Virus record (IMG/VR): IMGVR_UViG_3300042895_002216
Source: a virus
Taxonomy: Duplodnaviria > Heunggongvirae > Uroviricota > Caudoviricetes
Reading direction: 5' to 3' (one strand)
DNA length: 64,000 bases
The position numbers and the translations under genes are program-made. Below the pieces are notes generated by a model that saw only the letters and a program-made list of their open reading frames with translations, ran no database searches and was not told the DNA's origin. The first letter of the stretch is position 1. Each line of letters starts with the position of its first letter. Shown here piece by piece: positions 33,553 to 64,000 of the stretch.

Positions 33553-33558
33553 CTCAAA

Positions 33559-33646
33559 GGAGGATTGGCAGAGTGGTCGATCGCGGCAGTCTTGAAAACT
33601 GTTGTACCGCAAGGTACCGTAGGTTCGAATCCTACATCCTCCGCCA
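33559..33646 (+). tRNA. tRNA-Ser (anticodon TGA), class II with long variable arm, CCA encoded
   Basis: Acceptor GGAGGAT/ATCCTCC. Anticodon loop CTTGAAA. Variable hairpin GTACCgcaaGGTAC. T-arm GGTTCGAATCC. Confidence 0.8.
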
Positions 33647-35984: not shown

Positions 35985-36016
35985 TTTTTAGTAAAGGGAA
36001 ACCTTTTTTAAAAAGT

Positions 36017-36040
36017 TGGTATAATAACTAGATAAATAAC
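36017..36040 (+). promoter_or_regulatory. tandem promoter-like motifs (TTGGTATAATAAC + ATAAATAAC) ahead of the tRNA island
   Basis: Both recurrent motif classes occur back-to-back about 100 nt upstream of a short leader ORF and the first tRNA. Confidence 0.5.
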
Positions 36041-36138
36041 TAGACAAAAAAATTAAACTCGTGCAAATAACTACGAACATATCAAAAAATACTCAAAACT
36101 GGAATCAGTATCCGGCAGGCACAGTTAATGTGATTGCA

Positions 36139-36192
36139 ATGGAGACGATTAAAGATTTTGGGGTATTGCGAGGTTCTAGTGGTATAAGTTAA
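36139..36192 (+). CDS. 17-codon leader ORF upstream of tRNA island (METIKDFGVLRGSSGIS)
   Basis: ATG..TAA ORF between the promoter motifs and the terminator at 36217-36247. Codons 2-9 (GAG ACG ATT AAA GAT TTT GGG GTA) are each decoded by a tRNA in the downstream island. Confidence 0.3.
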   Translation: METIKDFGVLRGSSGIS

Positions 36193-36216
36193 GAAATTAC
36201 ATAACTAACAACAACG

Positions 36217-36247
36217 AACCTCGAACCTAAAAAATTCGAGGTTTTTT
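36217..36247 (+). terminator. intrinsic terminator between leader ORF and tRNA-Phe
   Basis: ACCTCGAA-cctaaaaaa-TTCGAGGT hairpin followed by TTTTTT. Confidence 0.6.
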
Positions 36248-36256
36248 GTTTTAGCA

Positions 36257-36332
36257 TGGTGAGGTAGCTCAGATGGTAGAGCACAGGACTGAAAATCCTG
36301 GTGTCGGCGGTTCGATCCCGCCCCTCACCACC
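36257..36332 (+). tRNA. tRNA-Phe (GAA), CCA encoded
   Basis: Acceptor GGTGAGG/CCTCACC. Anticodon loop CTGAAAA. T-arm GGTTCGATCC. Confidence 0.85.
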
Positions 36333-36411
36333 AACAAAAAAATGAATAAGAATATGAAACGTAAACGCTAAAGGCCCAGTGACTCCCAGAGTTACAGGTC
36401 TAAATACACAG

Positions 36412-36485
36412 GTCTTCGTAGCTCAGTTGGTTAGAGCACCTCACTTTTAATGAGGGAGTCACAGGTTCGAGTCCTGTCGGGGACA
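36412..36485 (+). tRNA. tRNA-Lys (TTT)
   Basis: Anticodon arm CCTCA-CTTTTAA-TGAGG. T-arm AGGTTCGAGTCCT. Confidence 0.8.
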
Positions 36486-36491
36486 CTAAAC

Positions 36492-36568
36492 TGGAATATA
36501 GCTCAATTGGTTAGAGCATTCGCCTGATACGCGAAAGGTTATAGGTTCGATTCCTATTATTCCAACCA
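36492..36568 (+). tRNA. tRNA-Ile (GAT), CCA encoded
   Basis: Anticodon loop CTGATAC. T-arm AGGTTCGATTCCT. Confidence 0.8.
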
Positions 36569-36573
36569 AACAT

Positions 36574-36651
36574 TGCGGGATGCGTAGAAAGCGGTTATCT
36601 CGTCAGTCTCATAAGCTGAAGTTCCCGGTTCGAGTCCGGGTCCCGCAACCA
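36574..36651 (+). tRNA. tRNA-Met (CAT), elongator-type
   Basis: Anticodon arm TCAGT-CTCATAA-GCTGA. T-arm CCGGTTCGAGTCCGG. Confidence 0.75.
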
Positions 36652-36660
36652 AAAGAATAC

Positions 36661-50772: not shown

Positions 50773-51975
50773 ATGGAAAATCAAAACAGCGTATGTTACA
50801 TTGGAAAAGTAACAGAAATCAAGGCAATCGAAGGAGCTGACAATATTGAGTTAGCGATCATCGGTGGATGGAATTGTATTACTAAAAAAGGACTACACAA
50901 GGCGGACGAATTTGTTATCATTGCAACAACTGATGCAGTTATTCCGGAAGAGTTATCCGAAAAATTGGGAGTAACCGGTTACCTGCGTAAGGGCAATCGA
51001 GTTAGAACAGTTAAGTTGAGAGGAGTTTACAGTGAGTGTCTAATCATTCCGCTTAATGTGCTTGAAGGTTCAGAAGAAATGAAGATCGGAGTTAGTAAAC
51101 AGCCTTGGGGCGATCAATTACAGTTGGGCCCTTATGACGATGCACTCGTTATTGAAGAAGGAGTTGACGTTAGTGAGATGCTTGGAATTTTCAAGTACGA
51201 ACCGCCAGTTAGACAGGTCCAACTTGCTTCAGGTAAAAAGGTTCGTTATCAAGACAATCCAAACTTTCATGTCTACTACAAGTTTCCTAACTTGAAAAAT
51301 GTTAGTGGAATGTTTACTGAAGAGGATATTGTGCAAATCACGCGTAAGATCCACGGTACGAATGCACGATACGGTATAGTTAAGAAGAATCGCTTGTCCT
51401 TCATGGATAGGATTAAAAAATTCTTTGGATTCGCCGGAGAGCTCTTTGAGTACGAGTACGTTTATGGATCTCATAATGTCGAGAAGGGTTCTGATTCTCA
51501 AGGGTTCTATTCAACTGATGTCTGGAGAACAATTGCCGAGAAGTACGATATCAAGAACAGGTTGCTTACCTTAGCAAAAACTAAAAATAGGATTGGTGAA
51601 CTTGGAGCTGGTATTGTAATTTACGGAGAAATTTACGGTGCAGGTATTCAAAAGAATTACGAGTACGGTCTGACTGATATTGAATTCGTTGGATTCGATG
51701 CCACAGTAAACGGCAAATACGAGTCCACTATTTACACTGAATTCCTTTTCAAAGAAGCGCTAGAGTTACCTCACGTTGGAGTCCTATACACAGGACCGTG
51801 GTCACAAGAGACACAAGACCAGTTCGTCTTTGGTAATATGATCAAAGGAACTAAGGTGCCGCATGAAGGCATTGTTATTAAGCACATAAGCGGTGAGCGT
51901 AATCGAGTAGCAAAGGTAATTAATCCAGACTATTTGATTTACGGAGAAAAGCACGATATTGGAGACTCACATTAA
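50773..51975 (+). CDS. ATP-dependent RNA/DNA ligase-family nucleotidyltransferase (RNA-ligase-like)
   Basis: Candidate motif I KIHGTN, motif IV EGIVIK and motif V-like VAKVINP in the expected order and spacing. Confidence 0.5.
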   Translation: MENQNSVCYIGKVTEIKAIEGADNIELAIIGGWNCITKKGLHKADEFVIIATTDAVIPEELSEKLGVTGYLRKGNRVRTVKLRGVYSECLIIPLNVLEGSEEMKIGVSKQPWGDQLQLGPYDDALVIEEGVDVSEMLGIFKYEPPVRQVQLASGKKVRYQDNPNFHVYYKFPNLKNVSGMFTEEDIVQITRKIHGTNARYGIVKKNRLSFMDRIKKFFGFAGELFEYEYVYGSHNVEKGSDSQGFYSTDVWRTIAEKYDIKNRLLTLAKTKNRIGELGAGIVIYGEIYGAGIQKNYEYGLTDIEFVGFDATVNGKYESTIYTEFLFKEALELPHVGVLYTGPWSQETQDQFVFGNMIKGTKVPHEGIVIKHISGERNRVAKVINPDYLIYGEKHDIGDSH

Positions 51976-51989
51976 TAAAACAAATACAA

Positions 51990-52463
51990 ATGGAAGAAGA
52001 AAAATTACCGATCAGAATCTATTTAGATGACGTTCGAACACCAATTGAACAGGACTGGATAGTTGTTAGATCATACCAGGAGTTCAAGGACAAGGTGATG
52101 GAAATTGGATTAAAGAACATTCACATGATCTCATTGGATCACGACTTGGGTGACTCAGCTATGTCAGAGTACTTCACGAATGTAAGTCCTAACTATAAGC
52201 TAGACTACACGAACATTACTGAAAAAACTGGAATGGATTGCACTAAGTGGTTGGTGAATCAGTTCTACGACGAGAATCCAAAGAGAATTGAGATGAGTCG
52301 TTTCGATAAGCGTAATGTGCCGATTCGGTTTCCAGCAGTCTACGTACACTCAGCGAATCCAATTGGATCAGCGAACATGATGGGTTACATTAATAACTTC
52401 TTCATGAATGAGGGAGAACCTCAAAACTGCGTGAGAGTTCAGATACCTCACACGGTAATGTAA
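51990..52463 (+). CDS. hypothetical protein
   Basis: 157 aa. Confidence 0.45.
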   Translation: MEEEKLPIRIYLDDVRTPIEQDWIVVRSYQEFKDKVMEIGLKNIHMISLDHDLGDSAMSEYFTNVSPNYKLDYTNITEKTGMDCTKWLVNQFYDENPKRIEMSRFDKRNVPIRFPAVYVHSANPIGSANMMGYINNFFMNEGEPQNCVRVQIPHTVM

Positions 52464-52484
52464 TTATTAAAAATAGATTAACTA

Positions 52485-53027
52485 ATGAAAGTTGTACAAG
52501 AATTTCCTAACGGGCTTATATCAGTTTATCCATCCGTGTTTGGCGATGAAAGAGGATTTTTTCTAGAATCGTTTAATCAGCTGAAATATTCTGAATTTCT
52601 TAATGAGCATTCATTTGTTCAGGATAATTTATCTAGATCCAAAAAAGGAGTCCTTCGTGGATTGCATTTTCAAGCTCCACCGTTTGATCAAGGAAAATTG
52701 GTTCAGGTAATTACAGGAAGCGTGTTGGATGTTGCGGTAGATATTCGTCGAGACTCTCCAAGCTACGGTAAATCCTTTCAAGTTGTATTAAATACGACTG
52801 ATCGCAATCAACTTTGGATTCCACCAGGCTTTGCGCATGGCTTCGTTAGCCTAGAAGACGACACTATTTTTTCCTATAAATGCACAAACGGTTATTCAAA
52901 AGAACATGAAGGCTGTATATTATGGAATGATGCGGACTTAGCGATTGATTGGGAAATTGAAAATCCTATCATTTCGGATAAAGATCAATTGGGAACCCCG
53001 TTTAAAGAGTTAATCAGCCCATTCTAA
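52485..53027 (+). CDS. rmlC: dTDP-4-dehydrorhamnose 3,5-epimerase
   Basis: FGDERGFF, GVLRGLHFQ and LWIPPGFAHGF are cupin RmlC hallmarks. Confidence 0.8.
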   Translation: MKVVQEFPNGLISVYPSVFGDERGFFLESFNQLKYSEFLNEHSFVQDNLSRSKKGVLRGLHFQAPPFDQGKLVQVITGSVLDVAVDIRRDSPSYGKSFQVVLNTTDRNQLWIPPGFAHGFVSLEDDTIFSYKCTNGYSKEHEGCILWNDADLAIDWEIENPIISDKDQLGTPFKELISPF

Positions 53028-53119
53028 CGAGAATTGCTGAAAATAAAAAATGACCTCAGGAAATTATTAATAGTTATTGGGTATAATAACTTTATAACAA
53101 AACAAACGTTCTTTAAGTT

Positions 53120-53200
53120 GCCCTCTTGGCGGAATTGGTAGACGCGCTAGACTTAGGATCTAGTCTTAGGGTGAGAGTTCGAGTCTCTCAGAGGGTACCA
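53120..53200 (+). tRNA. tRNA-Leu (TAG), CCA encoded
   Basis: Leu-type D-arm GGCGGAATTGGTAGACGC. Anticodon arm CTAGA-CTTAGGA-TCTAG. 9-nt variable region. TGGGTATAATAAC at 53088-53100. Confidence 0.75.
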
Positions 53201-53353
53201 AACACATATCACAAATAAAAATGTGAGTTACTTTGAAATAGCCAATTATAAGCCAACATAAAGCCGTTGGGTACAGAAGGAGTAATTAACCGGAGTATAG
53301 GCAACAATTGTGACACTGTAACAAATACCCATTTGAGTGGTATGTTTTAAATA

Positions 53354-53472
53354 GTCAGGTGGCGGAATTGGTAGACGCTATGTGGTGCGGAACTCGCTTC
53401 GTTCACCACTCCCTTAGCGGGGAAAACAAAGGTAAGAGATGTGACCATGCAGGTTCGAATCCTGTCCTGACT
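53354..53472 (+). ncRNA. atypical 119-nt tRNA-like gene (possible intron-containing or insertion-bearing tRNA)
   Basis: Acceptor GTCAGGT/TCCTGAC. Leu-like D-arm (GGCGGAATTGGTAGACGC). Canonical T-arm. The central region is a ~45-nt extended hairpin (GCTATGTGGTG...CACCACTCCCTTAGC) instead of a normal anticodon arm. Confidence 0.4.
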
Positions 53473-53638
53473 ACGATTGTTAACACGCTTGCTTCGTGTT
53501 GAAATTGTCAGATAACGTGCAACGATAGTTTAAAGACTGTAGAAAAAGAAACACTGACTGGAAGGATTCTTATGGACGCATAAGAAGTAAAAGTCCACAA
53601 CTAAACCTACTTACAATTGGCAAGGTAAATTGAATTAA

Positions 53639-53666
53639 GGCGATCGATCTAACGGTCGCCTTTTTT
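53639..53666 (+). terminator. intrinsic terminator
   Basis: GGCGATCG-atctaa-CGGTCGCC followed by TTTTTT. TAGTATATTAG follows at 53667-53677. Confidence 0.65.
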
Positions 53667-53680
53667 AGTATATTAGACTT

Positions 53681-54424
53681 ATGAAAGTACTACACAAACA
53701 GGAGAATTCAAAGCTTATTAATTATGAGTTGTATGAAATCGCTCCAAAGATTTATGCAGTCTTGGCAAAGGACTCTTTTGAGAGAGCGATGCTCTTTCTT
53801 AGAGCACAAGAGTATTATGAATCCCCTTTTCCTGAATTTAGAGGACAGGACTTTGATATTTTTGTCTACATGAATCGTTACCGAAAAGAGAGATCAGCTA
53901 ACTATTTTAGTTACACAGCGGACTGGAGCGGATACAATGTTCCTAGCGAATCTCTTGAAGCCTGTATGCGAGGAGTTTATCAGTATCATACTGACATAAC
54001 TTCGTACGATCATGAAATGACAGAGGTTGTGTCTATTATTAGACAGTACCAGAAAAAAGGTAAGTTCTATCTACTTGGAGTCGATTCATTGGAATCAAGA
54101 GTAATGGATCATGAATTTGCTCACGGGCTATTCTATACAAATAAGGCGTATAAAACCGAGATGATGGAGTTAGTATTATCTTTAAAGCGAGATCTATACG
54201 AACAGCTTGAAAGCTACTTGATTCAAATCGGCTACACAAGCCACGTAATCGCGGATGAGATTCAGGCTTATATGGCGACAGGATTAACGGCAACGATGGC
54301 AAAGACCAGAGGCTCAGTTACGGCAGCTAAGAAATTCGAAAAGATATTTAAGAAATACAAGAAACAATATGGCAAACACGATAATATCAATAACCCTAAA
54401 CGACAAGCAGCAGAAAAAGTTTGA
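53681..54424 (+). CDS. hypothetical protein with HExxH motif
   Basis: MDHEFAHGLFY is a zinc-peptidase-like motif. Likely leaderless. Confidence 0.5.
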   Translation: MKVLHKQENSKLINYELYEIAPKIYAVLAKDSFERAMLFLRAQEYYESPFPEFRGQDFDIFVYMNRYRKERSANYFSYTADWSGYNVPSESLEACMRGVYQYHTDITSYDHEMTEVVSIIRQYQKKGKFYLLGVDSLESRVMDHEFAHGLFYTNKAYKTEMMELVLSLKRDLYEQLESYLIQIGYTSHVIADEIQAYMATGLTATMAKTRGSVTAAKKFEKIFKKYKKQYGKHDNINNPKRQAAEKV

Positions 54425-54558
54425 TGCTTGGGGTAAGCACCTAAAAGCCCTGTTTGGCGAATGGGGAAACTTAACCTGGACAGTATCATCATGTGGAATC
54501 GGAGACACAATCACTGTCACTAGCAGCAATGCACCAAAACATCCATTAGACTTAACTG

Positions 54559-54867
54559 ATGTCGGTAGCTGGTAAGGAACGTTGCGACTGCGGAAAGATC
54601 GCAACTTGGTGTTACGGGCCAGGTTATAGAGATGGAGGTAATCCAAATTCATGTGATGATTGTGTCTCTCGTGGATGTGATTGTAATCACAATTACGTTA
54701 GTGTAAACTCGTATCATCCACCACTAGACTCACCTAATTTACCGGAAGGCGAAGAGGGAGTTGACTGGAAGTGGATTAAAGCTGATAAAGTTTGGTGCTG
54801 GATTGATGAGCGCGGTAGAGAATATCCATGCTGTGAGTACGACTACATAATAGGATCAGAAGATTAA
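54559..54867 (+). CDS. Cys-rich small protein
   Basis: Several CxxC/CDC motifs. Confidence 0.4.
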   Translation: MSVAGKERCDCGKIATWCYGPGYRDGGNPNSCDDCVSRGCDCNHNYVSVNSYHPPLDSPNLPEGEEGVDWKWIKADKVWCWIDERGREYPCCEYDYIIGSED

Positions 54868-54878
54868 TTAAACGAAAT

Positions 54879-55259
54879 ATGAGAATAGCAGTAATTGCAC
54901 ACGATAATAAAAAGGCGGACATGGTGGCATTCATCATGAAGCGTCTTGATTTTTTTAAGCAGCACGAGGTTGTTGCAACTGGTACGACCGGTACTCACAT
55001 TGAGCATGCAGGTCTTGAGGTCGACCGAATGAAGTCTGGACCGCAAGGCGGAGACGCTCAGATCGCAGCAGAGTTAGTCAACGGTAAAATAGATGGAGTT
55101 ATCTTCTTTATTGATCCATTAACTGCACATCCGCATGAAGTTGACGTTCAAATGTTACTTAGATTGTGTAATGTGTATAATATTCCTATTGCAACGAACT
55201 ATTCGACTGCAAGCTTGTTGATACAGGCAGTTTCTTCTAAAAATAACAACGATAAATGA
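54879..55259 (+). CDS. mgsA: methylglyoxal synthase
   Basis: RIAVIAHDNKK, ATGTTG, SGPQGGDAQIAAELVNGKIDGVIFFIDPLTAHPHEVDVQMLLRLCNVYNIPIATN align residue-by-residue with bacterial MgsA, including the catalytic His/Asp positions. Confidence 0.75.
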   Translation: MRIAVIAHDNKKADMVAFIMKRLDFFKQHEVVATGTTGTHIEHAGLEVDRMKSGPQGGDAQIAAELVNGKIDGVIFFIDPLTAHPHEVDVQMLLRLCNVYNIPIATNYSTASLLIQAVSSKNNNDK

Positions 55260-56992
55260 GTAAACTCACACGGGACTTTGAAGAGTTCATAAAAGGTAAA
55301 CATCCGAGCATTGAGTTTAGACCTCAGCAAAAAGAAGCGATAATCGATATTATTTCAGCATACGAAGAAGACCATAATGGAATTTATCTACTTGATGCGC
55401 CGACTGGATCAGGCAAGTCAGTTATCGCAATGTTATTTGCTGATTTTCTTGCATTTAAGGGAAATCGCGGCTATATCTTAGCATCTGACCTCTCTCTTCA
55501 TGAACAATACGTCAAAGATTTTAAAAAGTTGCAGGTATGGAATTGGGGTAATATAAAAGGTGTTGATAACTACCGATGCGTTGTGAACGACGAGAAATTT
55601 TCAGTCGGTGAGTGCAAGAGTAAAGGAACCTCTTATGAAAAGGCTGAATCTCTTCCGTGTTTCAAACAATGTGGCTACTTGACCTCAAGAAAAAAGGCAA
55701 TCAAGTCGCCAGTCTCTCTGTTAACCTATCCATACGCCCTGATTCAACGAAATTACGTTGAGCAAAATCAGCAAGGCAACGGTAAGGGCTCCCCATTTCC
55801 ACAAAGAGATTTTGTAGTATGCGATGAGGCCCATAAGCTACTTGATATTGTACAGAGCCATTTCAGTCCAATCGTTTCGCATGAAATTGTTAAAAAGACT
55901 GAGAGCTTAATTGAAAGCACCGGCGATATTGGCCAAAAGATACCACAAGTGGACACTGAACGATTAGCAAAAGTGATTGATATGATTTACGAACAGGAGG
56001 ATCATGGCAACTTGCTTAAATTACTTAAGGAGGTTACTAGACTCTTGAGCATTGCAGTTCAGGCAACCTCTTCGCTTAGAGAAAATGCATCAATTGAATT
56101 TTTAGAGGGCAGCATTCCATCCGAATGGTTGGCTGTCTTTGGCATGGCGGACTGGTGTAAGGACGTTCACTGTAAACTAGAAGACTATTGTAAAATCATT
56201 GAACAAGTAGGTCTTGAGAAGCTCGTAAAGAATCCTGGCGAAAAGTCAATCACATTCAACTGTATCGATGAGTACTACCTATTACAGAAACACTTCTTTA
56301 CGAAATTTGGATTCAAGTTACTGATGACTGCTACAATGGGCAGTCCCAGCGATTTCATGAGAAATCACGGAATCAAGAAGGCTAAGTACTTTAAGATTGA
56401 AAGTCATTTCAATTGGGAGAAGTCACCTATCATTTTCTATCCAGGTAAAAAAATGTCAACCAGATTCCTACAAGAGAATCTACAATGGGCAATTGATTCA
56501 GTAACCAGAATAGTCAGGGAGAACTCTGAGCACTCCGGAATCATTCATTCAGGTTCTTATGAATTGAATACTAAGATCTGGACAGGTCTTCCCAAAGATG
56601 TTAAGAAACGCATTGTTCTCTATAAAGGATCTGAAGAGAAAGAGATCGCGCTAAAGATAATGAAGAAGAAGAAGGCAATGGTACTGATGGGTCCATCTAT
56701 TCTTGAAGGCTTGAACATGGTTGACGACCAGAGTAGATTCCAAATCTTCTTAAAGGTTCCGTACCCTCATCTCGGCGACAAGTACGTTGCTGCTAAATTG
56801 GAATACAGCCAGCAATGGTACAATTGGAAGACCTCAATCGCTGTCCTGCAAGGAGTAGGCCGCTCAATACGTACACCTGAGGATTGGGCGGTGACTCATC
56901 TACTTGATGGATGTTTCGCAGACCTAATGAAATCCGCAGGTGATCAATTCCCACCTGACTTCAAAGCGAGATTGCGAATAGAGTATAAATAA
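55256..56992 (+). CDS. SF2 DEAH-box helicase, DinG/Rad3-like
   Basis: Walker A LLDAPTGSGKS. DEAH box VVCDEAHKLLD. C-terminal motif VI LQGVGRSIRT. Confidence 0.7.
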   Translation: MSKLTRDFEEFIKGKHPSIEFRPQQKEAIIDIISAYEEDHNGIYLLDAPTGSGKSVIAMLFADFLAFKGNRGYILASDLSLHEQYVKDFKKLQVWNWGNIKGVDNYRCVVNDEKFSVGECKSKGTSYEKAESLPCFKQCGYLTSRKKAIKSPVSLLTYPYALIQRNYVEQNQQGNGKGSPFPQRDFVVCDEAHKLLDIVQSHFSPIVSHEIVKKTESLIESTGDIGQKIPQVDTERLAKVIDMIYEQEDHGNLLKLLKEVTRLLSIAVQATSSLRENASIEFLEGSIPSEWLAVFGMADWCKDVHCKLEDYCKIIEQVGLEKLVKNPGEKSITFNCIDEYYLLQKHFFTKFGFKLLMTATMGSPSDFMRNHGIKKAKYFKIESHFNWEKSPIIFYPGKKMSTRFLQENLQWAIDSVTRIVRENSEHSGIIHSGSYELNTKIWTGLPKDVKKRIVLYKGSEEKEIALKIMKKKKAMVLMGPSILEGLNMVDDQSRFQIFLKVPYPHLGDKYVAAKLEYSQQWYNWKTSIAVLQGVGRSIRTPEDWAVTHLLDGCFADLMKSAGDQFPPDFKARLRIEYK

Positions 56993-56996
56993 CTCT

Positions 56997-57581
56997 ATGA
57001 AACACCTTAAACTATACGAAGAATTTGATCTTGACAGATTCCTAGACAATCCAGAAAAGGAATTAGCTGATGACAATTCACCAGAGATCAATGTAGGAAA
57101 TTACGTTGACTCATACCGAGGTAAAGGCCAAGTGCTTGATATCGATAGCGATTTTGCAAAAGTTGAATTACATAACTCAAAAGGCAATATTGTTAAAGTT
57201 CCAGTTTTTGCTCTAACTAAAATATCTCACGAAGACCTAACTTCAGCCAAGGTCGGAGATTCTCAAGCTGAACTTGCGGAGCTAGTGAGTCAGGCCAGAC
57301 AGTACAATGATTACCTTGACTCAACTGAAGATTATGATAACGAAGATGAAGAGGATGGAGTTTACTCAGCAAGTCAGGTAAATTTCGATACCCTACTAGC
57401 ATATATTCAAGATACAACGATCGATGTTATCTCTATTAAAAATAACGATAGTGCATACGATACCTATTCAGAATATCACGAACTGATTAATTTAGTCGGC
57501 TCAATCGCTGGAGCAATTCAGAGAGCAAGACCGGACTTAATGGATGAAGTTGATGCAGCACTAGACAATTTCCCAGGATAA
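56997..57581 (+). CDS. leader-family acidic protein
   Basis: MKHLKLYEEF leader. TATAAATAAC at 56984-56993. Confidence 0.6.
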   Translation: MKHLKLYEEFDLDRFLDNPEKELADDNSPEINVGNYVDSYRGKGQVLDIDSDFAKVELHNSKGNIVKVPVFALTKISHEDLTSAKVGDSQAELAELVSQARQYNDYLDSTEDYDNEDEEDGVYSASQVNFDTLLAYIQDTTIDVISIKNNDSAYDTYSEYHELINLVGSIAGAIQRARPDLMDEVDAALDNFPG

Positions 57582-58912
57582 TGAGACTTAAACGATTTAC
57601 ACAATTCGTTAATGAAAATACTGATGATGCTGAAGAATTAGCAGCATTAGGTTTTAATTCAAAGATTGACACGGATGAAATTCAAGGATTAATGGCCGAA
57701 TACAACCCAGAGGAGAAGACCGACACGACATTAGGTTTCGATTTGGGATTTGATATGACAGCTGATGATTTAGGACTTGATCCAGAAAGAGCAGAGGCTG
57801 CTGAATTAGATAGCGTGTTCCTTGTTCAGTACTATGTTGATTTCGACTTTGAGACAATGAAATCTAAAGTACAAGTGGCAGTCTTAAATTCTGGGATTGA
57901 TTTTGACGGTGCAGGTAATGCGTATGAAGTTGATTTTAAACTGGATTCAGAAAATCACGATTCTCAAGGAATCGCTGATGAGTTAACTCAGATTTTGCAG
58001 CGAATTGAATACGAAGGCATGTTTGTAGACATGGCAGTCGATATAGTAAATGACATAATCGATAGACGTCTTGGAGAAGTATCAGAAAAGAAGAAACTTA
58101 AATGGCATGATTCTGATGAGCCTAACACAAAAGGAAAATTCATAATTGAGAACTTATCTGATGAAGAAGCTGCAGAACTAAGAGCAATGGGTTTTGGTGG
58201 AGTTGACACTGATGCAATCGCAGAACTAGTCAATGGAGCAACTGCAGAAGATCAAATCGTTATTGTTTCAGGCCAGTTCAATCAATCTATAGATGATTAC
58301 GGAATAGATTCATCCGAATATCCGGATATAGAAAGAGACGTATGGACTGATTTTGAAGTCAGAATAAACTTTATCGATGAAACTGTTAAGTCGTCAGTTA
58401 GTGTCGCACAAAAAGATATCGGACTTTACGAAGATGCTGAACTTGAAGACTATGAATGGTCTGACCTATTCCAAAATGGAGATCCAGTTTCAATGAAGTC
58501 TAATGAGATAGCTGAAGATATTGAACTCTTTATGAGTGCCGTAACTGGTTTCGAAGACTCGCTTGGAATGTACGACAAAATTCAAGATCTTTTAAATAAG
58601 GCAATTGAGGAACAGTATCACAGATGGGATGACGAAGAAGATGATGAAGCTGATGAAGATGAAATTTCAGAAAAGAAAAAACTTAAATGGCACGATTCTG
58701 ATGCACCTGATGCAAATGGAAAATTCAGAGACCTTGGAGTTAATAAATTAGCGGATTGGTTAATCAGAACAAGAGGTGGTAACATGCAAAAGATTACTGG
58801 ATCGCTAAATCAACAAATTAATTTTAACAAGCGAAAAAATCCAAGTTATGCCAAGAAAATGGAGTCGACTCGGGAAGCAGTTAAAAGAAAATTAGCAAAA
58901 AGAAAAGAATAA
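57581..58912 (+). CDS. leader-family large acidic protein
   Basis: MRLKRFTQFVNEN leader. 443 aa, extremely D/E-rich with an internal duplicated EKKKLKWHDSD motif. Confidence 0.6.
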   Translation: MRLKRFTQFVNENTDDAEELAALGFNSKIDTDEIQGLMAEYNPEEKTDTTLGFDLGFDMTADDLGLDPERAEAAELDSVFLVQYYVDFDFETMKSKVQVAVLNSGIDFDGAGNAYEVDFKLDSENHDSQGIADELTQILQRIEYEGMFVDMAVDIVNDIIDRRLGEVSEKKKLKWHDSDEPNTKGKFIIENLSDEEAAELRAMGFGGVDTDAIAELVNGATAEDQIVIVSGQFNQSIDDYGIDSSEYPDIERDVWTDFEVRINFIDETVKSSVSVAQKDIGLYEDAELEDYEWSDLFQNGDPVSMKSNEIAEDIELFMSAVTGFEDSLGMYDKIQDLLNKAIEEQYHRWDDEEDDEADEDEISEKKKLKWHDSDAPDANGKFRDLGVNKLADWLIRTRGGNMQKITGSLNQQINFNKRKNPSYAKKMESTREAVKRKLAKRKE

Positions 58913-58949
58913 ATAAAACCAATTAGAAATATTGTAGTATATTATTAAC

Positions 58950-59021
58950 ATGAAAACATTATCCTTACATTCACTTTGTTTACGTTCGTTGAGATTAAGT
59001 CTCGATGTGTCTAGGCCGTGA
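58950..59021 (+). CDS. 23-codon leader ORF upstream of second tRNA island (MKTLSLHSLCLRSLRLSLDVSRP)
   Basis: Follows the TAGTATATTAT motif at 58935-58945 by about 5 nt. Rich in Leu/Ser/Arg/His/Cys codons that match the downstream Cys, Ser, His, Leu, Leu, Ser, Arg and Arg tRNAs. Ends 26 nt before the terminator. Confidence 0.35.
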   Translation: MKTLSLHSLCLRSLRLSLDVSRP

Positions 59022-59046
59022 TGTAAGATAAGAAAACTTCTACTGA

Positions 59047-59078
59047 AAAGGCTTAGACTAACGTTTAAGCCTTTTTTG
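59047..59078 (+). terminator. intrinsic terminator between leader ORF and tRNA-Cys
   Basis: AAGGCTTA-gactaacgtt-TAAGCCTT followed by TTTTTT. Confidence 0.6.
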
Positions 59079-59083
59079 TTTTT

Positions 59084-59153
59084 GGTCAGTTTGGTCGTGG
59101 AGGCCGTCAGGTCTGCAAAATCTGAGGAGTTGGTTCGATTCCAACATTGACCT
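59084..59153 (+). tRNA. tRNA-Cys (GCA)
   Basis: Anticodon arm CAGGT-CTGCAAA-ATCTG. T-arm GTTGGTTCGATTCCAAC. Confidence 0.75.
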
Positions 59154-59161
59154 CAAAAACT

Positions 59162-59245
59162 GGAAGAGTAATTCAGCTGGCGCTGGACCTAGTCTTGAAA
59201 ACTAGTGGTACCTTCGGGTATGGGGATCGATACCTCACTCTTCCG
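59162..59245 (+). tRNA. tRNA-Ser (TGA), class II, unusual T-loop
   Basis: Acceptor GGAAGAG/CTCTTCC. Anticodon arm CTAGT-CTTGAAA-ACTAG. Variable hairpin TACC-TTCG-GGTA. T-loop ATCGATA is non-canonical. Confidence 0.65.
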
Positions 59246-59260
59246 CTCGTTCTTTTACAT

Positions 59261-59338
59261 GGTAGACGTAGCTCAGTTGGTTAGAGCGCCTGATTGTGGT
59301 TCAGGAGGTCGTCGGTTCGATCCCGATCGTTTACCCCA
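59261..59338 (+). tRNA. tRNA-His (GTG) with encoded G-1 and C73, CCA encoded
   Basis: The extra 5' G pairs opposite discriminator C. Anticodon arm CCTGA-TTGTGGT-TCAGG. Confidence 0.85.
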
Positions 59339-59341
59339 ACT

Positions 59342-59417
59342 GCCTCTGTGGGTAAACTGGTAAAGCCGCTTGACTTAGGATCAAGAGATTTTGTGGGTTC
59401 GAATCCCACCAGAGGTA
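59342..59417 (+). tRNA. tRNA-Leu-like (TAG) with short variable region
   Basis: Anticodon arm CTTGA-CTTAGGA-TCAAG. Discriminator A. Variable region only ~7 nt. Confidence 0.55.
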
Positions 59418-59424
59418 CAAAAAT

Positions 59425-59505
59425 GCTCCCGTGGTGAAACTGGTAAACACGCTCGGCTTAAGATCGAGTGCGCAATGCTTGTGGGTTCGAGTCCCACCGG
59501 GAGTA
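59425..59505 (+). tRNA. tRNA-Leu (TAA), class II
   Basis: Anticodon arm CTCGG-CTTAAGA-TCGAG. 12-nt variable arm. T-arm GTGGGTTCGAGTCCCAC. Confidence 0.75.
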
Positions 59506-59510
59506 CTAAT

Positions 59511-59598
59511 GGAGAGTGAAGCAACAAGGTGTTGTCGCCGCCTGCTAAGCGAGCGGTTCCCGAAAGGGAATGGGGATCGAGACCTCCACTCTCCGCCA
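59511..59598 (+). tRNA. tRNA-Ser-like (GCT), class II, CCA encoded
   Basis: Acceptor GGAGAGT/ACTCTCC. Loop CTGCTAA with a weak anticodon stem. Variable hairpin TTCCC-GAAA-GGGAA. Same unusual T-loop (ATCGAGA) as 59162. Confidence 0.55.
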
Positions 59599-59599
59599 T

Positions 59600-59673
59600 A
59601 GTCCAGTAGCTCAGTGGAATAGAGCAACCGCCTTCTAAGCGGTAGGTCGCAGGTTCGAGTCCTGCCTGGATTA
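59600..59673 (+). tRNA. tRNA-Arg (TCT)
   Basis: Anticodon arm ACCGC-CTTCTAA-GCGGT. T-arm GCAGGTTCGAGTCCTGC. Confidence 0.8.
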
Positions 59674-59697
59674 CAAATTATTTAGTACAATATAGCT

Positions 59698-59928
59698 ATG
59701 GAAGAAATAACAAACGCAGAAAGAGAATTCATGTTCTATAAGATTGGAACAGCTGGATCGTTTCACACAGCCTTGATTCAGACAATTATGAAGGCTGATA
59801 TTCGTAATCAGGCTAAGCTTGCACTAGGTTTTCCCGAAGATGTTCAAGTGGTTCAACGTTTTCAAAACGAAAGTGGCTACTGGGAAGGTCTGCAAGAGCG
59901 CTGGAAAGCTGCACATAACCGAAACTAA
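59698..59928 (+). CDS. hypothetical protein
   Basis: 76-aa ORF between tRNA genes. Confidence 0.4.
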   Translation: MEEITNAEREFMFYKIGTAGSFHTALIQTIMKADIRNQAKLALGFPEDVQVVQRFQNESGYWEGLQERWKAAHNRN

Positions 59929-59937
59929 TTAGTACCT

Positions 59938-60010
59938 GCCCCGGTAGTTCAATGGATCAGAACACACGGCTACGGACCGTGAGATGGGGGTTCGAATCCC
60001 TCCTGGGGTA
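59938..60010 (+). tRNA. tRNA-Arg (ACG)
   Basis: Anticodon arm CACGG-CTACGGA-CCGTG. T-arm GGGGGTTCGAATCCCTC. Confidence 0.8.
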
Positions 60011-60025
60011 CTTAACTTAATCAAC

Positions 60026-60238
60026 ATGGCAAATTTAAAAAAGGGTAATATCATAGTCTTTTCTAGAAAGGACAAACCTAATGAAACTATAATTAAGGGC
60101 TCAAGCGATCCAATTAATGGAATGGTCACTACCGACAAGCAGGAATACTCAGTAGATTTCCTTAATCGATGGGTCCATTTTGGTTTCTGTAGAGTATTTA
60201 AACCTGCAGATCTGCCTTCAGAATACGTAGGGAAGTAG
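60026..60238 (+). CDS. hypothetical protein
   Basis: Start trimmed to MANLKKG so it does not overlap tRNA-Arg. Confidence 0.4.
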   Translation: MANLKKGNIIVFSRKDKPNETIIKGSSDPINGMVTTDKQEYSVDFLNRWVHFGFCRVFKPADLPSEYVGK

Positions 60239-60277
60239 TCGAGTCGTATAAATAAACTTCAAATAGAATGATTAATT

Positions 60278-61174
60278 TTGAAGTTACTTAAATTTACACA
60301 ATTCATAACTGAAGCCCGAATCTCTTCTCACGGAGAGGGTCGTATAGATCAACGAATCTATAATCTAGAGTCAATTAACTTACCTAAGCCAGCGAGACAA
60401 TTTATTCGAGAAGCTGGATTTGAAATAAACGAAGTCTACTCTCAACTCATTGATGCTATTAAATCTGAATTTAAAAAGAGCCAAGACCATATTGAGAGAA
60501 CTCAATTTCCATCAGGCCATAAAGCCCTACCAGTAGTTGCACCATTCTTAAAGATAGAGGGTACCTCTTATCCAGTAACAATGTCTGTAAAATCATTTAG
60601 TGGAGAGATTGAAAAAATTCACATCGGCGAGCGAGTTTTCGCCTATATTTCAGATGATGTTCTTACAACAATCAAGGTGCTCCCTCACAGAATGTCTCAT
60701 AAAGATATTCAAATGGATTTGGAAAATCATCTTTCTAGAAAGGGTAAAACTGGATCAGTTACCGTATATGAATTACCAGAAGAGACAGTAAATAGCGTAT
60801 TTGAACTTACAGAAGACGGTCAAGTAATCCCAGAAAGAAGAGCTGCCTATACTCCAGCAGTTATTAGCGGAGAACAACAATACTCAGTCGCAGCTGGTAG
60901 AAAAATTAAGGTGTTTATTCCATTCCTAAAAGAGTTCACTGAATGCACAATTGATGGTGTCCTAAACCGTGATTCTTTTAGAGAAGACCGATTCTTGAAA
61001 TTGGGAATTATTTTACCGGATGGCAGAAAGATTGCCAAAACTCTAAATCCTGGAGATACAGTCGAGCTCCCAATTGGAGAAAATGGGGACTGGGTAAAGA
61101 CAAAAATCGCAGATTCACTTTACGTATACGATAAGAGAACTGCTGAACCTATTTCACTTAAAGCAATCGCTTAA
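60278..61174 (+). CDS. leader-family protein (apparent TTG start)
   Basis: KLLKFTQFITEAR leader begins at a TTG codon. TATAAATAAAC at 60247-60257. Confidence 0.5.
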   Translation: MKLLKFTQFITEARISSHGEGRIDQRIYNLESINLPKPARQFIREAGFEINEVYSQLIDAIKSEFKKSQDHIERTQFPSGHKALPVVAPFLKIEGTSYPVTMSVKSFSGEIEKIHIGERVFAYISDDVLTTIKVLPHRMSHKDIQMDLENHLSRKGKTGSVTVYELPEETVNSVFELTEDGQVIPERRAAYTPAVISGEQQYSVAAGRKIKVFIPFLKEFTECTIDGVLNRDSFREDRFLKLGIILPDGRKIAKTLNPGDTVELPIGENGDWVKTKIADSLYVYDKRTAEPISLKAIA

Positions 61175-61313
61175 TCTTCTCGAGAAACTTTCTAAATTTT
61201 CTGAGTTAAATATTACTGGAACATAGAGCCTCGCTCTGTTCGTCTAGGGTTTACGAGCCCTTGAGTAATCGCGAAAGGTTACAAATAGATGAGCAAAAAA
61301 TAACATAACTACT

Positions 61314-62120
61314 ATGTACCAACAAACAATCACAACTGGTGGTTCAACTGCAGTATTTAATACTTTCAGCAGCCAACCCCAACCTACTGCCCACATAACA
61401 AAGGGCAGGGGAAGACTAAAGACCTACGGTCAGTCAGTCTATCTAAAAGACAGTTCACATTTTGAAATTGAACTGCACAATCCAAAAACAACACCAGTTC
61501 TTGCAAAAATCTGGATAAATGGGAAACTGTTATCGAATGCAGGAATTATCGTGAAACCAGGCCAGAGAGTCTATCTTGAAAGATTTATGGATGTTGCTAA
61601 AAAATTCAAGTTTGAAACTTACGACGTTGATACGTCAACTGGAACTGTTCGAGCAATCGCCGATAACGGCAAGGTCGAAGTACAGTTCTATGATGAATCG
61701 TCTTATCAGCTAAACGGCAATTCAGGTACGAATATTTGGCAACAGCCATTTACGTACACGACTCACCAGTGGCCAGGTCATACGCTAACTTCTAATATTG
61801 GAGGTTCAGCTAATGCATTTTACTGCGCAAGTTCGCTAGGTCCACAAGGTTCAAACGGCCCTCAAGGTCCAGCCGGAATACCGGGGTCGATGGAAACGGG
61901 TCGAATTGAAAAGGGCGAAAGCTCTAGTCAAAACTTCGAATATGCAGACGGCCAATACAATTCATGGAGCTGTACAACCGTCAGGTGGCAGATTCTACCG
62001 GAAAGTAAAAAACCTGTTGAAATGGGAGAAATTCGCTCTTATTGCACAGGTTGCGGTACTCGCCACAAAAAATCAAGTTGGAAATTCTGCCCTAATTGCG
62101 GAACCTCCATAACTGAGTAA
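61314..62120 (+). CDS. hypothetical protein with Gly-X-Y repeat and C-terminal zinc ribbon
   Basis: GPQGSNGPQGPAGIPG collagen-like stretch. C-terminal CTGCGTRHKKSSWKFCPNCG zinc ribbon. Confidence 0.5.
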   Translation: MYQQTITTGGSTAVFNTFSSQPQPTAHITKGRGRLKTYGQSVYLKDSSHFEIELHNPKTTPVLAKIWINGKLLSNAGIIVKPGQRVYLERFMDVAKKFKFETYDVDTSTGTVRAIADNGKVEVQFYDESSYQLNGNSGTNIWQQPFTYTTHQWPGHTLTSNIGGSANAFYCASSLGPQGSNGPQGPAGIPGSMETGRIEKGESSSQNFEYADGQYNSWSCTTVRWQILPESKKPVEMGEIRSYCTGCGTRHKKSSWKFCPNCGTSITE

Positions 62121-62188
62121 CATTAGTCCTGAGCGGGGCTCTAAATGTTCCAGTTATACAGATAAATAAACTCAAATTATTCAAACAA

Positions 62189-62485
62189 ATGCATAATAAT
62201 AAAATTTTAAGTTTCGAAGAATTCGTTCAACAAGGAACAGGCGAAATGGGTCAGGAAATGGGCCACGAAATGGACCATACTGCTGAAATGCCACAGGGCG
62301 GAGAAGATCAAGCACTATTACCAGCACCAGCTGAAGAAGTAGAAGGCGGAGAAACTGAACACAACGTTCCAAACCACATGCAAGATGATTCAGAAGAAGG
62401 AACTTCTGACAATGAACCTAATATTGAAGTTGAAACATCAGCTAACGATATTGAAGCACACACCGACGAAAACGGCGGATTCTAA
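62189..62485 (+). CDS. small acidic protein with leader-like N-terminus
   Basis: MHNNKILSFEEFVQQG. ATAAATAAAC at 62162-62171. Confidence 0.45.
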   Translation: MHNNKILSFEEFVQQGTGEMGQEMGHEMDHTAEMPQGGEDQALLPAPAEEVEGGETEHNVPNHMQDDSEEGTSDNEPNIEVETSANDIEAHTDENGGF

Positions 62486-62506
62486 AAAACTTTTCTTGCT
62501 AATCAA

Positions 62507-62899
62507 ATGAGCGGTAGAACTAGAAATAACCAAGATGTCGATACTATGATGAACGACATACTTGATGCGCTCGACGTAATCAAGGCCAAATTGCCAAATG
62601 GCGAACTTAAGATAATTCAAGAGAGAATGGAAGGTTTAGAATCTTCCCAAGAGGACATGCACGAAGATCTGAGACAGATCAAAAAGCAGCTGCTTGATCC
62701 TGAAGACGGTATTGTCGTTAGAGTAAATAAGAACACTGAATTTCGTAAAAGGAAGGAAGAGGAGGCTAGAATTTATCAAGTAATATTGGATGAACATAAG
62801 GAGCTTATGTCATGGAAATCTACTGTAACTAAAATACTATGGATTATAGTAACGGCAGTTGTCGGAATTGCAGTGGGTATGATTTTTAAGTCAAATTAA
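62507..62899 (+). CDS. C-terminally TM-anchored protein
   Basis: Coiled N-terminal part and a C-terminal TM helix ILWIIVTAVVGIAVGMIF. Confidence 0.5.
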   Translation: MSGRTRNNQDVDTMMNDILDALDVIKAKLPNGELKIIQERMEGLESSQEDMHEDLRQIKKQLLDPEDGIVVRVNKNTEFRKRKEEEARIYQVILDEHKELMSWKSTVTKILWIIVTAVVGIAVGMIFKSN

Positions 62900-62922
62900 C
62901 GATTCATCATTTTTTTTTTTTG

Positions 62923-62949
62923 AAGTCTCACTTTTGTGGGACTTTTTTT
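62923..62949 (+). terminator. intrinsic terminator
   Basis: AAGTCTCAC-tttt-GTGGGACTTTTTTTG. TAGTATATTAT follows at 62958-62968. Confidence 0.6.
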
Positions 62950-62992
62950 GTTTTTATTAGTATATTATAAGTAATAAACAAAAAATATACTT

Positions 62993-63265
62993 ATGGCAAC
63001 ATTCGAAGTAGACGTAGACGTTTCTGATATCTTATCGGAATTATCATCTCGTGAAAAGCGAGAAATGTACGAAGATTTAAAAGAAGAACTTGAAGAGGAC
63101 GATGTTTCAAAAAATCCTGAGGATCTATTTAACAGCGGCACCTCCTACATGGAACAGGAAATTGGAAAGGCTTTGGCTTGGATGTGGGAATACCGCAATA
63201 TGCTGACGACCTCTCAAAGAAACCGAATCCTAGCAATCACAAAAGAAAACTTCGTTGAGCAATGA
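62993..63265 (+). CDS. small acidic protein
   Basis: 90 aa, D/E-rich. Confidence 0.45.
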   Translation: MATFEVDVDVSDILSELSSREKREMYEDLKEELEEDDVSKNPEDLFNSGTSYMEQEIGKALAWMWEYRNMLTTSQRNRILAITKENFVEQ

Positions 63266-63507
63266 AATACTACACTAGTCTCTTAATCGTGGCTTTGTTG
63301 GTAACAAGCTGCGGTTATAACAAACCGGAACCAATTCGAATTGAAAAGTACAAGGTGGTACGTACCTTTAAAAAGACCCCAATATCAATTCACGATGAAA
63401 TGTCTCCACGATATAGAGCAGTATTGACGAATGGAGATACGGTTGCATGCAGAGAACACTGCAAGGCTGGAGACACAATAACATTTGAATATTATGGGAC
63501 TAGATAA
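63262..63507 (+). CDS. small lipoprotein
   Basis: LLIVALLVTSC lipobox. ATGA-coupled. Confidence 0.45.
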   Translation: MKYYTSLLIVALLVTSCGYNKPEPIRIEKYKVVRTFKKTPISIHDEMSPRYRAVLTNGDTVACREHCKAGDTITFEYYGTR

Positions 63508-63706
63508 AATAGACTACAAAGAAGACTTGTATGAGGCAGTGCTTATTAAGCAAGCATACGACTTCATGAGTTCAGGCAAAGAAAATATAATAGTCTTTTT
63601 TGAAGAGAATTGCAACGGCCCAATTTTCCAGGAAATGGTAAGATTAAATGGAGCAAAGAGCGTTATCAACGACTTAGTAGACACAATTAACAATTTAAAC
63701 TCGTAA
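63485..63706 (+). CDS. hypothetical protein
   Basis: 73 aa. Confidence 0.4.
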   Translation: MNIMGLDKIDYKEDLYEAVLIKQAYDFMSSGKENIIVFFEENCNGPIFQEMVRLNGAKSVINDLVDTINNLNS

Positions 63707-63708
63707 AC

Positions 63709-64000
63709 ATGAAAAATTTATTTTTATCGATGGTATGTGCAATTATCACCATCTCAGCAAGTGCACAAATGCCGATAATAACGGCAGAAAATTCAAAGAC
63801 CGTATTTGTTGATAAACCTGGAAAATGGTTAATCTATCAAACTGGAGAAATTGTAGAATTACCTGAATCAGCGGATGCTCGCAAAATATTGGTAGAGTGC
63901 GCAGATCAAGGCTGTTTTGGCTGGGTTGTTGAAAACTTGGAAGGTCAACAGTGCTACGTAACGATTACTGACGAAGGTGTTAAATTTCGCCACTCAAGAA
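63709..64000 (+). CDS. secreted protein (partial, runs off window)
   Basis: Signal peptide MKNLFLSMVCAIITISASAQ. Confidence 0.4.
   Translation, partial: MKNLFLSMVCAIITISASAQMPIITAENSKTVFVDKPGKWLIYQTGEIVELPESADARKILVECADQGCFGWVVENLEGQQCYVTITDEGVKFRHSR

Follow-up and report, generated by a model that had tools for sequence, protein, structure and literature searches.

We have analyzed an apparent regulatory element at positions 58935-59083 of a 64,000-nucleotide stretch of phage DNA (Caudoviricetes; IMG/VR record IMGVR_UViG_3300042895_002216), the whole of which we call the window. The element lies on the plus strand, directly ahead of a cluster of eight tRNA genes (island 2), and comprises a putative phage promoter motif, a short open reading frame (ORF) of 23 codons that we term leader 2, and an intrinsic terminator. 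A previous examination of the letters alone, made without database searches (the sequence-only reading), had placed a promoter motif at 58935, the ORF at 58950-59021 and a terminator before the tRNA genes, and had proposed that together they act as an attenuator of the trp type. All three features were recovered. A terminator scan places a 14-pair stem at 59045-59076, with the loop TAAC and a T-tract extending to 59083, one base before the start of tRNA-Cys. From the stop codon of leader 2 to the end of the terminator is 62 nt, about 95 nt precede the terminator, and the element as a whole is compact, at about 135 nt. The coordinates of all the features are collected in Table 1.

The promoter consensus TAGTAYAWTA is matched 12 times in the window, on the plus strand only, compared with 0.77 matches expected from shuffled sequences. 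The ATG of leader 2 is located just 6 nt past the -10-like hexamer, and the same 15-nt spacing from motif to ATG is found at the gene of a 247-amino-acid (aa) protein (start 53681), at an ORF starting at 33062 and at a 76-aa ORF starting at 59698. The proximity of the ATG to the hexamer suggests that the transcript, whose start is deduced from the motif, is probably leaderless or nearly so, and that leader 2 is probably translated from such an RNA. The gene upstream of the element, encoding a protein of 443 aa, stops at 58912. There is no terminator between this point and the promoter, and the hairpin therefore probably also ends the transcripts of the 443-aa gene. Two other explanations of the locus were discarded. 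The only ORF on the minus strand at leader 2 is one of 32 aa that overlaps tRNA-Cys, and no tRNA model matches within 58950-59083, as would be expected of a degenerate tRNA or tRNA-like leader.

The eight tRNA genes that had been read from the sequence all exist. ARAGORN detects six of them at its default setting, and both tRNA-Ser genes only when the threshold is relaxed to 90%. These two align with tRNA-Ser genes called by ARAGORN in related phages, and tRNA-Ser(TGA) additionally matches an Rfam model. In the ARAGORN drawings of both, the acceptor stem has 8 bp and the T stem 4 bp, an unusual geometry for tRNA-Ser, and for one of the two the highest Rfam score is that of the tRNA-Sec model (47.9 bits).

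Island 2 serves five amino acids, Leu, Ser, His, Cys and Arg, and these account for 17 of the 22 residues of leader 2. The corresponding fraction is 0.22 in the proteome encoded by the long genes (p = 4e-8) and 0.35 in six-frame translation (p = 6e-5). Among all ORFs of 20-50 aa in the six frames of the window, 656 in number, leader 2 has the highest fraction of the five (0.77, against a mean of 0.36 with a standard deviation of 0.10), and mononucleotide shuffling gives P = 1e-4 for its composition. The codons listed in the sequence-only reading (TTA four times, TTG, CTT, CAT, TCA, TCG, TGT, CGT, AGA, AGG and AGT) are indeed present, together with TCC, CTC and TCT. Its further statement that every tRNA of the island has a cognate codon in the ORF needs a qualification for tRNA-Leu(TAG), for which there is neither CTA nor CTG and which is served by wobble only.

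Leader 2 in related phages and its predicted alternative structures

Contigs of related phages were retrieved from IMG/VR and from metagenomes by means of the neighbouring helicase and the upstream 443-aa protein. Ahead of Cys-led islands eight distinct variants of the leader-2 ORF occur, all with the reading frame intact and at the same distances from promoter and terminator. Across the lineages the positions of residues shift while their membership of the amino-acid set stays; thus LSLHSLCLRSLRLSL in the window corresponds to LSLHRLSLCTRRSRS in L025. The N-terminus MKTLSLH is kept in seven of the eight variants.

To judge from the sequences, the codon set of the leader also shifts with the content of the island. 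In the L028/L056 lineage the island consists of Cys, Met(CAT), His, Ser, Leu and then Leu or Ser, a gain of tRNA-Met and a loss of tRNA-Arg. The leader of this lineage differs from all other variants in having internal Met codons, three in number, and its sole Arg codon lies inside the segment that pairs with the terminator (segment 2, below). The tRNA(CAT) is of the elongator type, and could be either Met or Ile2. Three contigs (L013, L015 and L016) have neither the island nor leader 2. In L023 all that is left of the island is a chimeric tRNA remnant; the promoter and ORF are gone, and the terminator persists behind a protein gene.

Wider searches added no leader. The distant relatives found through the helicase (L073-L078, L027 and L029) have no Cys-led island at this position and yielded no new variants, so that they serve as island-less controls. 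Megablast of 58600-60100 against 50,697 phage records returned short tRNA matches only and no close relative, and a search with the 298-aa downstream protein found no relatives. Matches from a pattern scan of metagenomes (L046-L050, L055 and L057) were mostly due to chance and were rejected; among them L047 has a promoter-like context in common with L028 and shows neither tRNA nor terminator logic.

The full-length leader 2 of the window is predicted to fold as a hairpin within the ORF (P1) plus the terminator, with a free energy of -41.8 kcal/mol (z = -6.2, or -2.8 without the terminator). P1 sequesters both the stop codon and segment 2, GTCTAGGCC, within the last sense codons. Complementarity between these codons and the 5' arm of the terminator, with one G-U pair, had been pointed out in the sequence-only reading, and is found as described: GTCTAGGCC forms nine pairs with GGCTTAGAC, one of them G-U, at -15.0 kcal/mol. 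In 2000 shuffles of the ORF no pairing of equal strength arose, and P <= 0.001 was obtained by shuffling in each of three clades. We had roughly guessed the probability of a chance origin of the 9-bp complementarity at about 10%; shuffling gave less than 0.1%, and the estimate was rejected.

Three mutually exclusive helices, the ORF hairpin, the antiterminator and the terminator, are predicted in all eight variants, and the minimum-free-energy fold at full length is P1 plus terminator in each of them. We mimicked the ribosome by constrained folding in ViennaRNA, masking nucleotides at codons 6, 10 or 14 or at the stop codon. Masking at codon 14 gave the antiterminator in every variant, and masking at codons 6 and 10 had the same effect, with L052 at codon 10 as the single exception. 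A mask at the stop codon gave the terminator in all eight. In the window leader, masking at codons 6-14 leaves segment 2 free for the antiterminator. The comparison of terminator and antiterminator folds that had been put forward as a check of the attenuator proposal gives the predicted result, with the structure switching according to where the mask is placed.

In three diverged lineages, compensatory changes have preserved the pairing of segment 2 with segment 3 (the 5' arm of the terminator). Duplexes between cognate segments have energies of -10 to -15.5 kcal/mol, compared with mostly -6 to -9.4 kcal/mol for non-cognate combinations between clades. In an alignment of seven sequences the antiterminator is paired in 96.8% of cells, against 3-56% for slid controls, and two of its pairs have changed in full compensation, one from U-A to C-G and the other from C-G to U-A. 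For P1 and the terminator together, 92% of cells are paired and seven pairs have changed on both sides. At one point segment 3 has changed from GA to AG. The terminator absorbs this by G-U wobble against an unchanged segment 4, and segment 2 has answered it in a fully compensatory way. The leader of L028 is mis-aligned by MAFFT, and was therefore left out of the formal pair counts and handled by duplex energies instead.

Island 1 and the arrays of other huge phages

The window contains a parallel element ahead of a second group of tRNA genes, island 1 (36258-39216), which has 18 tRNAs for 15 amino acids. Its ORF, leader 1, contains all 15 of these amino acids and is the sole ORF to do so among the 656 small ORFs. 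All 15 are already present in the first 35 residues, with only one residue of the island-2 set (Ser); the tail of the leader, with Leu, Arg and Ser, overlaps its own segment 2. The two leaders divide the amino acids between them as the two islands do (36/6 versus 5/17, Fisher p = 1e-6). Leader 1 is kept in seven variants, and is deleted where island 1 is reduced (L031, L035 and L036). Matches to a degenerate NWNQYPA pattern in L062, L069 and L071 are in unrelated genes and were set aside. From its sequence, island 1 is predicted to be gated by a second, independent attenuator of the same design. As this covers the other 15 amino acids, the phage would have two decoding regulons.

Small ORFs followed by terminators are also found ahead of tRNA arrays in three uncultured huge phages (LR756502, LR745206 and LR756500), where the leader sequences are unrelated to those of the window. 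When enrichment was calculated for every leader against every array, the resulting matrix peaked at the leader's own array or at one with the same amino-acid set; the exceptions are L006 and L025, which score marginally higher against overlapping sets. The matching of leader to array in three unrelated huge phages suggests that the elements belong to a general class. In LR756502 a gene for a truncated class I aminoacyl-tRNA synthetase of the Trp/Tyr type (4554-5273; Pfam tRNA-synt_1b, E = 4e-38) directly follows the tRNA-Trp-containing array that lies behind leader A; leader A itself includes a Trp codon.

Table 1. Coordinates of the two elements in the window, with leader peptides of related and of other huge phages
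Feature	Position	Strand	Sequence and remarks
Putative phage promoter motif	58935-58944	+	TAGTATATTA; -10-like TATATT at 58938-58943
Leader-2 ORF, 23 codons	58950-59021	+	MKTLSLHSLCLRSLRLSLDVSRP; TGA stop at 59019-59021; in frame in eight sequence variants
Regulatory codon run, codons 4-18 (proposed stall zone)	58959-59003	+	15 consecutive Leu/Ser/His/Cys/Arg codons
P1, anti-antiterminator hairpin	58964-59027	+	outer arms 58964-58982 : 59012-59027; minimum-free-energy fold
P1 inner hairpin, 9 bp	58987-58995 : 58999-59007	+	minimum-free-energy fold
Segment 2, antiterminator 5' strand	59009-59017	+	GTCTAGGCC; in last sense codons
Segment 3, terminator 5' arm	59045-59058	+	59050-59058 (GGCTTAGAC) is also the antiterminator 3' strand
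Segment 4, terminator 3' arm and T-tract	59063-59083	+	arm 59063-59076; T-tract TTTTTTGTTTTT starts inside the arm at 59072
tRNA island 2, putatively regulated	59084-60011	+	eight tRNAs (ARAGORN, Rfam, relatives)
tRNA-Cys(GCA)	59084-59154	+	
tRNA-Ser(TGA)	59162-59246	+	
tRNA-His(GTG)	59262-59338	+	
tRNA-Leu(TAG)	59342-59418	+	
tRNA-Leu(TAA)	59425-59506	+	
tRNA-Ser(GCT)	59511-59598	+	
tRNA-Arg(TCT)	59600-59674	+	
tRNA-Arg(ACG)	59938-60011	+	
Predicted attenuator ahead of island 1	36018-36253	+	promoter motif GGTATAATA at 36018-36026
Leader-1 ORF, 43 codons, GTG start	36061-36192	+	MQITTNISKNTQNWNQYPAGTVNVIAMETIKDFGVLRGSSGIS
Leader-1 segment 2	36169-36176	+	CGAGGTTC; exact complement of GAACCTCG in the terminator 5' arm
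Leader-1 terminator	36216-36225 : 36235-36244	+	T-tract to 36253; ends 5 nt before tRNA-Phe (start 36258)
Leader-2 peptide, L024			MKTLSLHSLRLCSSRLSLDKSRP
Leader-2 peptide, L025			MKTLSLHRLSLCTRRSRSERLRP
Leader-2 peptide, L028			MKMLLCHISMSLSHSMSGRLEL
LR756502.1 (L079) leader A	about 3180-3380		MRTINKHKHFSKLNKWFSNHRFEAKAFC; array His-Phe-His-Phe-Trp-Lys-Lys-Lys
LR756502.1 (L079) leader B	about 5687-5850		MKTTIKNTSSRSRSSKSGEVRLYS; array Arg-Ser-Ser-Arg
LR745206.1 (L080) leader A	about 6540-6715		MTTNSTHKNFSKSHKWFSNQSFGTESVLSLN
LR745206.1 (L080) leader B	about 7790-7930		MKTINNTSKSSSRSSSMSEIRLYS; array Arg, then Ser tRNAs
LR756500.1 (L081) leader	28026-28167		MKAISVHIIHIWEHLLEEVNINIM; array His-Glu-Val-Trp

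Proposed mechanism and rival explanations

We consider it probable that leader 2 is a ribosome-mediated transcription attenuator of the trp/his type that gates the phage tRNA operon. Conservation, the tracking of island content by composition, the switching of the folds, covariation and the independent copies all lend support in silico to the trp-type logic first proposed. Transcription from the phage promoter would begin at or just before the leader ATG, and a ribosome would translate the leader while RNA polymerase was heading for the terminator adjoining tRNA-Cys. Codons 4-18 would mostly be read by anticodons encoded downstream. When the cognate aminoacyl-tRNAs were scarce, the ribosome would stall within these codons and P1 would be held open; segment 2 could then pair with 59050-59058, so that no terminator would form and the eight tRNA genes would be transcribed. 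With fast decoding the ribosome would reach the TGA and cover segment 2, the terminator would form, and transcription would stop at 59083. The outcome would be negative feedback, in which tRNA synthesis is set by the decoding capacity of the cell for those codons. A link to anticodon nucleases is purely conjectural.

A number of points weigh against this reading. All of the support is computational, and we infer promoter activity, the transcription start site and translation of the leader, and with them the stalling and the regulatory outcome. Even with no ribosome present, the nascent RNA of seven of the eight variants has the antiterminator as its minimum-free-energy fold as long as segment 4 has not been made. 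The default for an untranslated leader may therefore be read-through and not termination, depending on the kinetics of folding. If the promoter is used by a phage RNA polymerase, the outcome would depend on how that enzyme responds to the hairpin and to a trailing ribosome. The covariation within leader 2 comes from few lineages (three clades). Leader 2 of the window serves tRNA-Leu(TAG) only by way of the wobble codons CTT and CTC; the leaders of relatives carry CTA at codon 4. The islands of L025 and L026 lack tRNA-Ser, yet their leaders hold four to five Ser codons. In leader 1 one or two Ser codons are conserved despite the lack of a tRNA-Ser gene in island 1; the window does have one elsewhere, at 33559. 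Lastly, L031 retains the promoter, terminator and tRNAs without a leader, indicating either a leaky terminator or a decaying island.

Could leader 2 instead encode a functional small protein, such as an amphipathic regulatory peptide? The hairpin would then be a plain terminator for the ORF and the 443-aa gene, and the tRNAs would arise by leak-through or from other transcripts. This would be consistent with the N-terminus MKTLSLH conserved in all but one of the variants, with a hairpin that probably ends the upstream gene too, there being no terminator between 58912 and the promoter, and with the survival of the hairpin in L023 as an ordinary gene terminator. However, it is composition that is conserved and not position, with residues permuting inside the set of the island; moreover the composition follows island content, both in L028 and in leaders A and B of LR756502, and the ORF vanishes together with the island. 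A small protein would also leave unexplained the covariation of the last codons with the terminator 5' arm, and the presence of a second ORF with the complementary 15 amino acids before island 1, and we regard it as very unlikely. The strength of the predicted structure (z = -6.2 for the full leader and -2.8 without the terminator) and the compensatory changes in the helices would equally be expected of a structured non-coding RNA, such as a 5' external transcribed spacer, a signal for processing of the tRNA precursor or a small RNA. On this view the helices would have produced the reading frame as a by-product, and palindromic stems, for example AGATCTAGATCT in L025, do automatically give Arg and Ser codons. 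Yet L028, the most diverged leader, whose centre can be aligned by MAFFT only with gaps, keeps the frame, the ATG spacing and the stop codon beside segment 2. The bias in composition persists against mononucleotide shuffling (P = 1e-4), and the unrelated leaders in four other contexts are each enriched for the amino acids of their own array. Codon identity can be read only by translation, and we hold a non-coding function to be very unlikely.

The terminator and antiterminator alternatives exist irrespective of translation of the ORF, and they might be chosen by a trans factor, i.e., a protein, an uncharged tRNA as in a T-box, or polymerase speed or nucleoside triphosphate levels. T-box leaders that sense tRNA are an established precedent for such a switch. 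Against this, there was no match to the T-box or any other riboswitch family in Rfam, even at E <= 10, in 58880-59160 or 35900-36400, nor was a T-box found at E <= 1 in 52000-64000. The leader is short, the terminator following after about 95 nt, and nothing in it resembles a specifier loop. The codon statistics and the covariation with island content would have no explanation if translation were not involved, and we hold a translation-independent switch to be highly unlikely.

Some further features of the window and of its relatives deserve mention. Between tRNA-Arg(TCT) and tRNA-Arg(ACG) lies the 76-aa ORF noted above (59683-59928), which has a weak match to phrog_15317, its own promoter motif and an ATG at the leaderless spacing. 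In relatives with both tRNA-Arg genes the pair is separated by 5-42 nt, with no intervening ORF. Given this insertion with its own promoter, the last tRNA, Arg(ACG), may escape the attenuator in the window. Isolated genes for tRNA-Ser(TGA) (33527-33646) and tRNA-Leu(TAG) (53080-53200) duplicate specificities of island 2; they stand behind promoter-like motifs, with neither leader ORF nor terminator, and so may be constitutive copies. A tRNA-like sequence of 121 nt at 53353-53473 (Rfam tRNA, 34.5 bits) contains an insertion of about 45 nt near its middle, and could be an intron-containing or a disrupted tRNA. It lies 150 nt after the stand-alone tRNA-Leu(TAG) at 53120, which has its own promoter and no leader. 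An RNA ligase gene (50773-51972; Pfam RNA_ligase and a PHA02142 OB-fold domain) is located near the tRNA genes, in keeping with a phage investing in the repair or supply of tRNAs. The 443-aa protein upstream of leader 2 (57581-58912) is acidic and has no Pfam match. It contains the internal repeat SEKKKLKWHDSD-P-KGKF twice, and its C-terminal 80 or so residues still match the most distant relatives (61-73% identity). In the relatives, tRNAs of the suppressor type occur in L037 (8250-8327, anticodon TTA, inside island 1), L074 (1473-1545, CTA) and L081 (36291-36359, CTA), a hint of stop-codon recoding in parts of the phage group. The leader of L037 ends in TAA, which is readable by its own suppressor with the TTA anticodon.

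The window (39% G+C) derives from a large phage; contigs of its relatives reach about 253 kb. A Shine-Dalgarno core is found at four of the 64 long genes, and the upstream regions are A-rich. A 639-aa protein encoded on the minus strand (27615-29534) carries a cohesin domain and a C-terminal sorting domain of the type IX secretion system (Por_Secre_tail), and the nearest phages in the databases are uncultured huge phages and Prevotella Lak phages, with 31-42% identity in the helicase. These findings point to a probable host among the Bacteroidota, in which initiation of translation without Shine-Dalgarno pairing is normal.

Meaning and comparison with known systems

We think it rather more probable than its opposite that 'codon-checklist' attenuators are a general class in huge phages with Bacteroidota-type hosts, the leader of each array listing the codons that the array decodes and the tRNA genes forming demand-driven regulons. 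If so, the two regulons of the window would jointly cover all 20 amino acids, and the phage would continuously assay the decoding capacity of its host, switching on those tRNAs that had become limiting, be it through a mismatch in codon usage, shut-off of the host or defence nucleases that cleave tRNA. Such control would be the first known regulation in cis of tRNA genes via translation of their own cognate codons.

The purpose of phage tRNA genes and the way in which they are expressed are debated, the candidates being compensation of codon usage, a substitute for host tRNAs that have been degraded, and evasion of anticodon nucleases. Were the phage to measure decoding capacity directly and make tRNAs on demand, the question would become testable. 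The organization of the arrays would also be explained, with tRNAs grouped by amino acid and one regulon for each leader. Attenuation, known for the supply of amino acids, would here govern the supply of the decoding machinery. The element would be a compact, multi-input and tunable sensor of tRNA availability that might find use in synthetic biology. Furthermore, the rule of a small ORF and terminator ahead of a tRNA array, with matching composition, offers a handle on translated small ORFs and on the function of arrays in uncultured phages.

Leader 2 most closely resembles the enterobacterial attenuators (trpL, hisL, leuL, thrL, ilvL and pheL, and the pheST leader). Like these, it has regulatory codons clustered in a short leader ORF and predicted overlapping helices of the types 2:3 (antiterminator) and 3:4 (intrinsic terminator), to which P1 may add 1:2; and, as predicted here, a stalled ribosome would lead to read-through and one at the stop codon to termination. 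In trp about 70 nt separate the stop codon from the end of the terminator, and the thrL and ilvL leaders are multivalent, sensing more than one amino acid. The phage elements differ in regulating tRNAs in place of biosynthetic enzymes or synthetases. Their leaders list five amino acids (15 for island 1), compared with one to three; they are phage-borne, and are translated apparently from leaderless RNA or without Shine-Dalgarno pairing. None of the Rfam leader families (Trp, His, Leu, Thr and Phe) reached its gathering threshold in a covariance-model search of both leader regions. The best scores, 16.1 bits for Phe_leader at 59024-59079 and 25.9 bits for Thr_leader at 36184-36250 against thresholds of 55, are confined to the terminator hairpin.

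The nearest precedent for a leaderless sensor ORF is provided by the polycysteine short ORFs of mycobacteria, which are Cys-responsive attenuators (bioRxiv 10.1101/834739). They share with leader 2 a leaderless short ORF at the 5' end, the decoding of which governs downstream expression. They respond to one amino acid and control protein genes of cysteine metabolism, not tRNA genes, and the abstract does not present them as switching between terminator and antiterminator in the classical manner (10.1101/834739). Neither their host nor their sequences are related to those studied here. T-box riboswitches resemble leader 2 in that the state of a tRNA sets the choice between terminator and antiterminator in a 5' leader. 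T-boxes, however, bind the uncharged tRNA directly, with no need for translation, and regulate genes for synthetases, biosynthesis or transport, whereas leader 2 would sense its tRNAs through the ribosome.

Clustered tRNA genes are shared with T4, T5 and other tRNA-rich phages, and such clusters are thought to compensate for codon-usage mismatch or depletion of host tRNA. We know of no leader-peptide attenuator for the tRNA clusters of these phages. A full-text search of the literature, incomplete in its coverage so that an earlier description is possible, found no report of a leader-peptide attenuator acting on tRNA genes in phage or bacterium. This type of control has thus apparently not been described before for tRNA genes. 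By its mechanism we place the element with the enterobacterial leader-peptide attenuators, outside the curated Rfam families; it would work as they do, and would extend attenuation to arrays of tRNA genes.

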